Below are positions 46,215 through 46,420 of a DNA stretch of 64,000 bases, piece by piece; positions within the stretch are counted from its first letter, which is position 1, and every line of letters begins with the position of its first letter. This stretch comes from an uncultured Actinomycetota bacterium (GTDB lineage: Bacteria; Actinomycetota; Actinomycetes; Mycobacteriales; Micromonosporaceae): the NCBI GenBank assembly GCA_963727415.1, contig CAVSGF010000010.1, positions 354,902-418,901 on the forward strand, given 5' to 3'. The notes under the pieces were generated by a model. The model saw only the letters and a program-made list of their open reading frames with translations, ran no database searches and was not told where the DNA came from. The position numbers and the translations under genes are program-made.

Positions 46215-46420
46215 GCGGTTGCGGTTGAGCGGCGCACGCGGTCGAGTCGCGCACGCGGTCGAGTCGCGCACGCGGTTGAGCGGCGCACGCGGTCGAGTCG
46301 CGAGCGGTTGAACGGCATGGGTCGAGCGGCGCACGCGGTTGAACCGCGCATGTGGTCGAGCGGCGCACGCGGTTGAACCGCGCATGTGGTCGAGCGGCGC
46401 ACGCGGTCGATGCAAGCCGC
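46215..46420. repeat. Array of about 12 tandem 17-bp units (consensus GCGGTYGAGYSGCGCAC), some forming the palindrome GCGGTTGAACCGC
   Basis: Seen directly: gcggttgagcggcgcac / gcggtcgagtcgcgcac / ... / gcggttgaaccgcgcatgtggtcgagcggcgcac x2. Confidence 0.7.

Follow-up and report, generated by a model that had tools for sequence, protein, structure and literature searches.

A 17-bp tandem array in the DUF6893-hypA spacer of an actinobacterial [NiFe]-hydrogenase operon and its probable origin as a minisatellite

The mycobacterial MIRU-VNTRs, reportedly described by Supply et al. (Mol Microbiol 1997/2000), are VNTR, or minisatellite, loci of bacteria, and the array described here is likewise head-to-tail, non-coding, actinobacterial and intercistronic within an operon, with adjacent identical copies that indicate stepwise gain. 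Like a MIRU-type element, it is placed between two genes of one operon, DUF6893 and hypA. The array resembles MIRU loci by position but departs from the features that define them as follows: First, its unit is 17 or 34 bp instead of the 40-100 bp of MIRUs. Second, MIRUs are dispersed over many loci, whereas the array occupies a single locus in the window (the whole 64-kb stretch of DNA that was analyzed) and has no match in public collections. Third, it has no short ORF bridging the stop and the start of the flanking genes. We class the array as a further example of the bacterial VNTRs, a familiar type of locus, and consider it likely that it is a private, lineage-specific minisatellite that arose by tandem duplication in an insertion-tolerant intercistronic spacer and has no dedicated function.

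REP/BIME sequences, which serve as targets of IS110-family elements (IS621, ISPpu10; PMC11208160 and its reference PMC1525189), offer a second comparison. The array shares with them a GC-rich and partly palindromic sequence, an extragenic position inside an operon and an IS110-family element nearby. In contrast to REP/BIME, most of its units are non-palindromic and its folding is not above that of shuffled controls, no dispersed copies were found in the 64-kb window or in the other genomes scanned, and the neighboring IS is not inserted in it and has guides that do not match it. The IS itself resembles the IS110 bridge-RNA elements (Durrant et al. 2024, PMC11208160) in its domains, its 243-nt and 22-nt ends, its CT core, and its invariant donor and variable target guides, and differs from them in that the copy in the window is a pseudogene with two frameshifts. 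In the bridge RNA of these elements (PMC11208160), the left target guide carries the top-strand sequence of the left target followed by the core, the right target guide carries the core followed by the right target in reverse complement, and the donor guides follow the same logic.

The array and the gene models around it

In a [NiFe]-hydrogenase operon, the spacer between a DUF6893 gene and hypA holds the array, which is read on the transcribed strand (Table 1). According to the gene order obtained from Pfam, all genes of the operon are on the minus strand and the IS alone is on the opposite strand; we take this order to be that of an actinobacterial high-affinity (Hhy-like) hydrogenase cluster. 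The DUF6893 gene, which the first-pass annotation had overlooked, encodes a protein 53-65% identical to those of DUF6893 genes at the same position in relatives. That annotation had placed the array between the IS110 element and hypA. Its closeness to hypA holds, with about 25-30 nt between the array and the hypA ATG, whereas on the IS side the DUF6893 gene intervenes and the transposase start is ~370 nt away. The stop codon of the DUF6893 gene overlaps an ATG (TGATG, 46422) whose frame crosses the entire array and ends at 45883 inside hypA, and the spacer from DUF6893 to hypA is 232 nt in the window.

Table 1. Features of the hydrogenase operon, the array and the IS110-family element, in positions of the window
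Feature	Position	Strand	Basis or remark
Hydrogenase small subunit	54299-55387	-	Pfam
Hydrogenase large subunit	52492-54291	-	Pfam
NifU/Rieske	51419-52582	-	Pfam
DUF5947, then DUF6084	between NifU/Rieske and the 48534-~50075 gene	-	Pfam
Protein without family assignment	48534-~50075	-	operon order
hycI-type hydrogenase maturation protease	47998-48537	-	Pfam
IS110-family element, 1493 bp with one of the two CT cores included	46538-48030	+	end alignment and guide logic; opposite to operon
IS110 transposase pseudogene (DEDD_Tnp_IS110 and Transposase_20)	46781-48008	+	Pfam PF01548, PF02371
IS non-coding left end, 243 nt, bridge-RNA-like guides	46538-46780	+	guide geometry from PMC11208160
DUF6893-type 34-aa gene (MKLKLVGLAAVAAVAAIVVRSLPDIKRYRQIRDM)	46422-46526	-	AGGAG Shine-Dalgarno; homologues in relatives
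Tandem array, 12 units, nominal 17 bp	46215-46412	-	TRF and pattern matching
Two perfect 34-bp super-units	46335-46368 and 46369-46402	.	each with palindrome CGCGGTTGAACCGCG
hypA Shine-Dalgarno GGAGGGAG	46195-46202	-	5 nt upstream of ATG, downstream of array
hypA, 117 aa, identical to P0001	45836-46189	-	start at ATG 46189
hypC	45527-45802	-	downstream, within hypA operon
DUF6390 gene	44751-45530	-	downstream, within hypA operon

The regular 17-bp array of about 12 repeats with two perfect 34-bp super-units, as first noted from the sequence, was confirmed by TRF and by pattern counts. TRF reported a period of 17 at 46221-46410 (11.5 copies, score 198) and a period of 34 at 46220-46407 (5.7 copies, 86% matches, score 243), and these two calls have the highest TRF scores in the window. 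At two mismatches or fewer, the consensus GCGGTYGAGYSGCGCAC matched ten times within the array and twice elsewhere in the window; chance would give ~0.94 matches per 64 kb, and all 100 shuffles stayed below 12. The copies thus stand head to tail without spacers and far above chance, as in a tandem repeat or minisatellite. Read along the minus strand, ten of the 12 units have 17 nt while units 6 and 7 are shortened to 14 and 15 nt, and the units alternate between TCGACC... and TCAACC... in mRNA sense, making about six 34-bp double units. Unit 12, nearest to hypA, is degenerate, and units 9 and 10 are identical. The adjacent identical units (the two perfect 34-mers; units 9 and 10) point to recent stepwise duplication, of which the two super-units are the most recent event within the array, and units 6, 7 and 12, which are shortened or degenerate, look like older copies. 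The palindrome that had been noticed in the array is real and extends to 15 bp; CGCGGTTGAACCGCG occurs in perfect form at 46334-46348 and 46368-46382, 34 bp apart. It is present in only two of the 12 units, and these two are a recent exact duplicate.

Since an ORF of 188 aa that starts at GTG 46402 runs through the array, we weighed whether the array encodes a repetitive N-terminal extension of HypA, or whether assembly gave it an artefactual copy number. In the array, none of the three frames is interrupted by a stop codon, and a 1.1-kb short-read Logan contig from the same organism (L009) breaks inside it, so that short reads cannot size it. As for coding, however, the 23 HypA homologues that we read all start with (M/V)HE[YFIL]GL, save one with three extra N-terminal residues, and the public protein P0001, which is identical to HypA, is recorded as 117 aa. 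Furthermore, a strong Shine-Dalgarno sequence precedes ATG 46189, and the period, 17, is not divisible by 3. As for an artefact, the window agrees fully with the 57 nt upstream of hypA in L009, and the divergence among the units is sufficient for assembly from long reads. We regard either form of this explanation as very unlikely, and the earlier judgment that the N-terminal extension of HypA is an artefact is correct. The array accounts for the spurious 188-aa HypA gene model and explains the break of short-read assemblies at this locus. Exact-protein look-ups of the 188-aa ORF and of the DUF6390 protein found no identical entry.

The IS110-family element and its insertion site

We set the boundaries of the IS by aligning the left and right ends of homologous copies. 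The left end reads CT-AATGAG, with one copy of the CT core at 46536-46537 and the first nucleotide of the element at 46538, and the right end, which is 22 nt long, reads CTGGGATGT-CT, with its last nucleotide at 48028 and the second copy of the CT core at 48029-48030. A blastn search of the IS region against plasmids gave 142 records; for the homologues in Rhodococcus, Streptomyces, Streptosporangium and Mycobacterium, identity is 76-80% over essentially the full length. Compared with an intact homologue, the transposase has two frameshifts, at ~47465-47470 and ~47628-47643, which would probably leave this copy inactive. In one of the homologous sequences, the Ca. Mycobacterium methanotrophicum plasmid NZ_CP097321 (L020, ~2085-2140), the right end of one IS copy is followed, after 13 nt, by the start of a second, making the copies near-tandem with the junction CT-GACAGGAAACCAC-CTAATGAG.

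Of the two invariant donor guides in the non-coding left end of the element, GGGATGTC (46679-46686) corresponds to the right-end terminus with a C added and TCATTAGG (46718-46725) is the reverse complement of CCTAATGA. The variable target guides are GCTCCT (46610-46615, left) and GAGAG (46633-46637, right), and the insertion site GCTC-CT-CTC matches them exactly, GCTCCT being GCTC-CT and GAGAG the reverse complement of CTCTC. In ten homologous copies, the left guide matches the copy's own left flank over at least 6 nt in seven, and the right guide matches the right flank over at least 5 nt in eight of nine; Rhodococcus WAY2 (CCCTCTCT/TGACAG) and R. pseudokoreensis (CGATTCCCCT/TAAAAG) provide example pairs. 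With a DEDD domain, a long left and a short right end, a CT core and guide-flank covariation, the element belongs to the IS110 group with bridge RNA. That the bridge-RNA guides of this copy spell out where it is inserted, with covariation over ten copies, reproduces known biology and is not a discovery.

The IS has interrupted the junction of hycI and the DUF6893 gene, and the last ~10 codons of hycI now run into its right end. Removal of 46538-48030 restores GGTCTGCTC-CT-CTCTGTCC, with HycI ending in ...GRTERSRP*, and in this IS-less sequence hycI and the DUF6893 gene share the stop/start overlap ATGA, the arrangement found in the relative L010. Another boundary model, in which GCTCCT is a direct repeat and the element spans 46538-48021, was rejected, as the right ends are conserved through CTGGGATGT-CT and the guides fit only 46538-48030. 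Both boundary models restore the ATGA overlap.

The first-pass annotation had suggested that the array may have attracted the IS; it would then be a preferred target of the kind that REP sequences are for IS621 and ISPpu10. The IS lies only ~125 bp from the array, and there is a precedent, in that some IS110-family elements target repeated palindromes (PMC11208160; bioRxiv 10.64898/2026.03.19.712850). However, neither IS junction (46536/46538, 48028/48030) is in the array: they border the CT core where hycI meets the DUF6893 gene, which itself stands between the IS and the array. Moreover, the guides of the element do not match the array. K-mers of at least 8 nt common to the array and the IS occur only inside the transposase coding region, and with the non-coding left end the array shares a single 7-mer, which is away from the guide segments. 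Since both target guides match the actual site and covary with the flanks in most homologous copies, the idea of the array as IS target is refuted, and we leave it a vanishingly small probability. The IS integrated ~125 bp from the array, where its own guides direct it.

The spacer in relatives and the search for the repeat

The lineage is represented by one genome only, and the closest HypA after P0001 is 73% identical. We compared the spacer in eight independent relatives with the gene order HycI-DUF6893-HypA-HypC-DUF6390. The array is absent from the DUF6893-hypA site in seven of the eight, whose spacers have only 1-11 nt: 1 nt in L010, L028 and L030, 7 nt in L011-13, 8 nt in L031/32 and L033, and 11 nt in L014. 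In L033, the hycI-DUF6893 spacer (1425-1529), which is the junction that holds the IS in the window, is unusually long (105 nt) and AT-richer.

The eighth relative, L029 (Logan ERR3772646, HypA 71% identical), has an 80-nt DUF6893-hypA spacer with a tandem repeat of 16 bp x 2.9. This repeat resembles the array in lying in the same spacer of the same operon, directly upstream of the hypA Shine-Dalgarno sequence, and in having a non-triplet period (16 versus 17 bp). It differs in that its unit is unrelated, it has only ~3 copies in 80 nt, and its origin can be traced to the 3' codons of DUF6893, its first copy being a duplication of the last codons of that gene (TRF 240-267); no such trace was found in the window. 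Alignment of the L029 repeat to the array revealed no similarity, with a score matched by 30% of random window segments, indicating that tandem repeats arose in the DUF6893-hypA spacer on two independent occasions. Further repeats of L029 are found in the 3' end of hycI (17 bp x 4.9) and at the hypA/hypC junction (14 bp x 3.1). The arrays of L029, at 48-131, 262-307 and 673-715, thus occupy three operon junctions with periods of 14-17 bp, which suggests that in this clade the junctions of the operon either tolerate tandem duplication or are hot spots for it. It is possible that mutation itself is elevated there, so that tandem duplications of 14-17 bp arise preferentially at the gene junctions of the operon in this actinobacterial clade.

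Beyond the relatives, the repeat was not recovered as an array. A 25-nt degenerate pattern, GYGGTYGARYSGCGCAYGYGGTYGA, gave eight single hits and no arrays in 185,579 species genomes; each hit falls in ordinary sequence without repeats, and one conserved region, probably a coding gene, accounts for six of them. With a looser pattern of 2.5 units, JGI metagenomes yielded only two unrelated 17-bp repeats of 3-4 copies, while a scan of viral contigs had no hits and blastn of the array against plasmids found no match. Within the 64-kb window, only chance-level 11-mers of the array recur elsewhere. The similarity of the repeat unit to its own flanks is not above that of random window segments, so the seed of the repeat cannot be traced to flanking sequence, and an insertion of foreign DNA is possible as its origin.

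Function and origin of the array

Folding the array with its flanks (251 nt) gave -104 kcal/mol for the mRNA strand and -123.9 kcal/mol for the other strand. Compared with dinucleotide-preserving shuffles, there was no excess structure on either strand (z = +1.17 and +1.07, respectively), 178 and 175 of 200 shuffles folded at least as well, and the centroid structure of the mRNA strand is mostly unpaired. Since shuffles fold equally well, the stability of the array's RNA reflects base composition and not a selected structure. This result bears on the possibility that the array is a REP/BIME-type RNA element, the hairpins of which would block 3'-5' decay of the upstream message, make a processing site or attenuate read-through into hypA. 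Its intercistronic site inside an operon, its very high GC content, the large absolute folding energy and the palindromic units, which by their sequence could form hairpins of 6-7 bp, are all consistent with such an element. Nevertheless, the parity with shuffled controls on both strands and the mostly unpaired centroid argue against it, as do the lack of a U-tract or terminator-like site, of dispersed copies in the window and the species genomes, and of an Rfam match, and we hold this explanation to be improbable.

A scan of the array for a sigma-70-like promoter or an intrinsic terminator found neither, and the array has no U-tract. It also contains no TA dinucleotide and thus no TANNNT -10 element on either strand. 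The Rfam scan of the array matched no family; the only Rfam signal was Ms_AS-4, an actinobacterial sRNA, at 47616-47696 on the minus strand, below threshold (48.2 bits versus a gathering score of 50, E = 2e-5). This hit is antisense inside the IS110 transposase gene and probably reflects conserved transposase sequence instead of a separate RNA gene.

The array might, alternatively, consist of operator or iteron sites, with a lineage-specific regulator that binds the units or the two palindromes and controls hypA-hypC-DUF6390; in this role it might form a roadblock or, once the IS had split the operon, an internal point of control. The perfect 15-bp palindrome, which occurs twice at a distance of 34 bp, looks operator-like and would count against the minisatellite reading. 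The position of the array immediately upstream of the hypA ribosome-binding site and the separation of hypA from the upstream operon promoter by the IS also fit an operator. However, only two of the 12 units are palindromic and both stem from one recent exact duplication, the array is missing in the seven relatives with the same operon, and the palindrome or motif gave only chance-level 3-mismatch hits in the operon promoter region and elsewhere in the 64 kb. In addition, a spacing of 17 bp is ~1.6 helical turns, which would place successive units out of phase, and the array has no promoter-like element, lacking even the TA of a -10 box. The suggestion that it is a protein-binding array regulating the hyp genes thus found no supporting evidence, the array being absent in relatives and its motif not recurring at the operon promoter or in the window, and we consider an operator unlikely.

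A further explanation would make the array a recently evolved functional cis-element, which arose after IS110 cut hypA-hypC-DUF6390 from the hydrogenase promoter and from translational coupling. It would then serve as a multi-site platform for a regulator or a non-canonical sigma factor, or as an mRNA processing or entry site through which the maturation genes regain their expression or have it adjusted. We give this scenario little chance. If it were true, and the array bound a regulator or supplied a new signal for expression behind a polar IS insertion, it would represent the birth of a cis-regulatory element de novo through tandem duplication.

Beyond position and a palindrome that occurs twice, nothing speaks positively for the rival explanations. 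We favor the minisatellite reading, for which the following course of events may be proposed. A short, GC-rich unit of 17 bp (34 bp as a double unit) would have been amplified head to tail, through replication slippage or unequal recombination, within the DUF6893-hypA spacer of the [NiFe]-hydrogenase maturation operon. In relatives, the spacer of 1-11 nt would be short enough for translation of hypA to be coupled to the upstream gene. In the window, the array is presumably transcribed within the operon mRNA, and its sole predictable effect would be a distance of 232 nt between hypA and the stop codon at which ribosomes leave DUF6893, which likely uncouples hypA translation from DUF6893. With such a gap, hypA would have to initiate on its own strong Shine-Dalgarno sequence, GGAGGGAG, downstream of the array, and because hypA has this sequence, the spacer would tolerate insertions. 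The array would thus persist in a tolerant spacer and probably has no dedicated sequence-specific function, while IS110 would have arrived independently, guided by its bridge RNA to the CT core in the hycI/DUF6893 junction.

As it stands, a private minisatellite in an insertion-tolerant spacer matters little. It could be used as a strain-typing marker if it proves polymorphic, and it offers a natural example of a normally close gene pair (spacer of 1-11 nt) that has become separated by 232 nt.

Two more non-triplet intergenic arrays are found in the window, at 61746-61807 (16 bp x 3.8) and 62081-62151 (16 bp x 4.4), which fits a general tendency toward tandem duplication, with selection as the filter. 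Between the two lies a small Cys-rich ORF (61825-61987, MCYPITCHACGKITYDGCG...), and the first array ends ~15 nt before the ATG of this ORF, resembling the array at hypA. Other repeats of the window include short tandem repeats at 51310-51517 on the minus strand, at the NifU/Rieske-DUF5947 junction (18 bp x 3.1 with 97% identity, and periods of 12, 17 and 21 bp), which are in frame and lie in the C-terminal tail and the N-terminal extension of the NifU/Rieske and DUF5947 proteins. A perfect 18-bp x 2.8 repeat is located at 57760-57810, near the 5' part of an ORF for a solute-binding protein, and a 30-bp x 2.6 repeat (95% matches, score 144) at 33548-33626.
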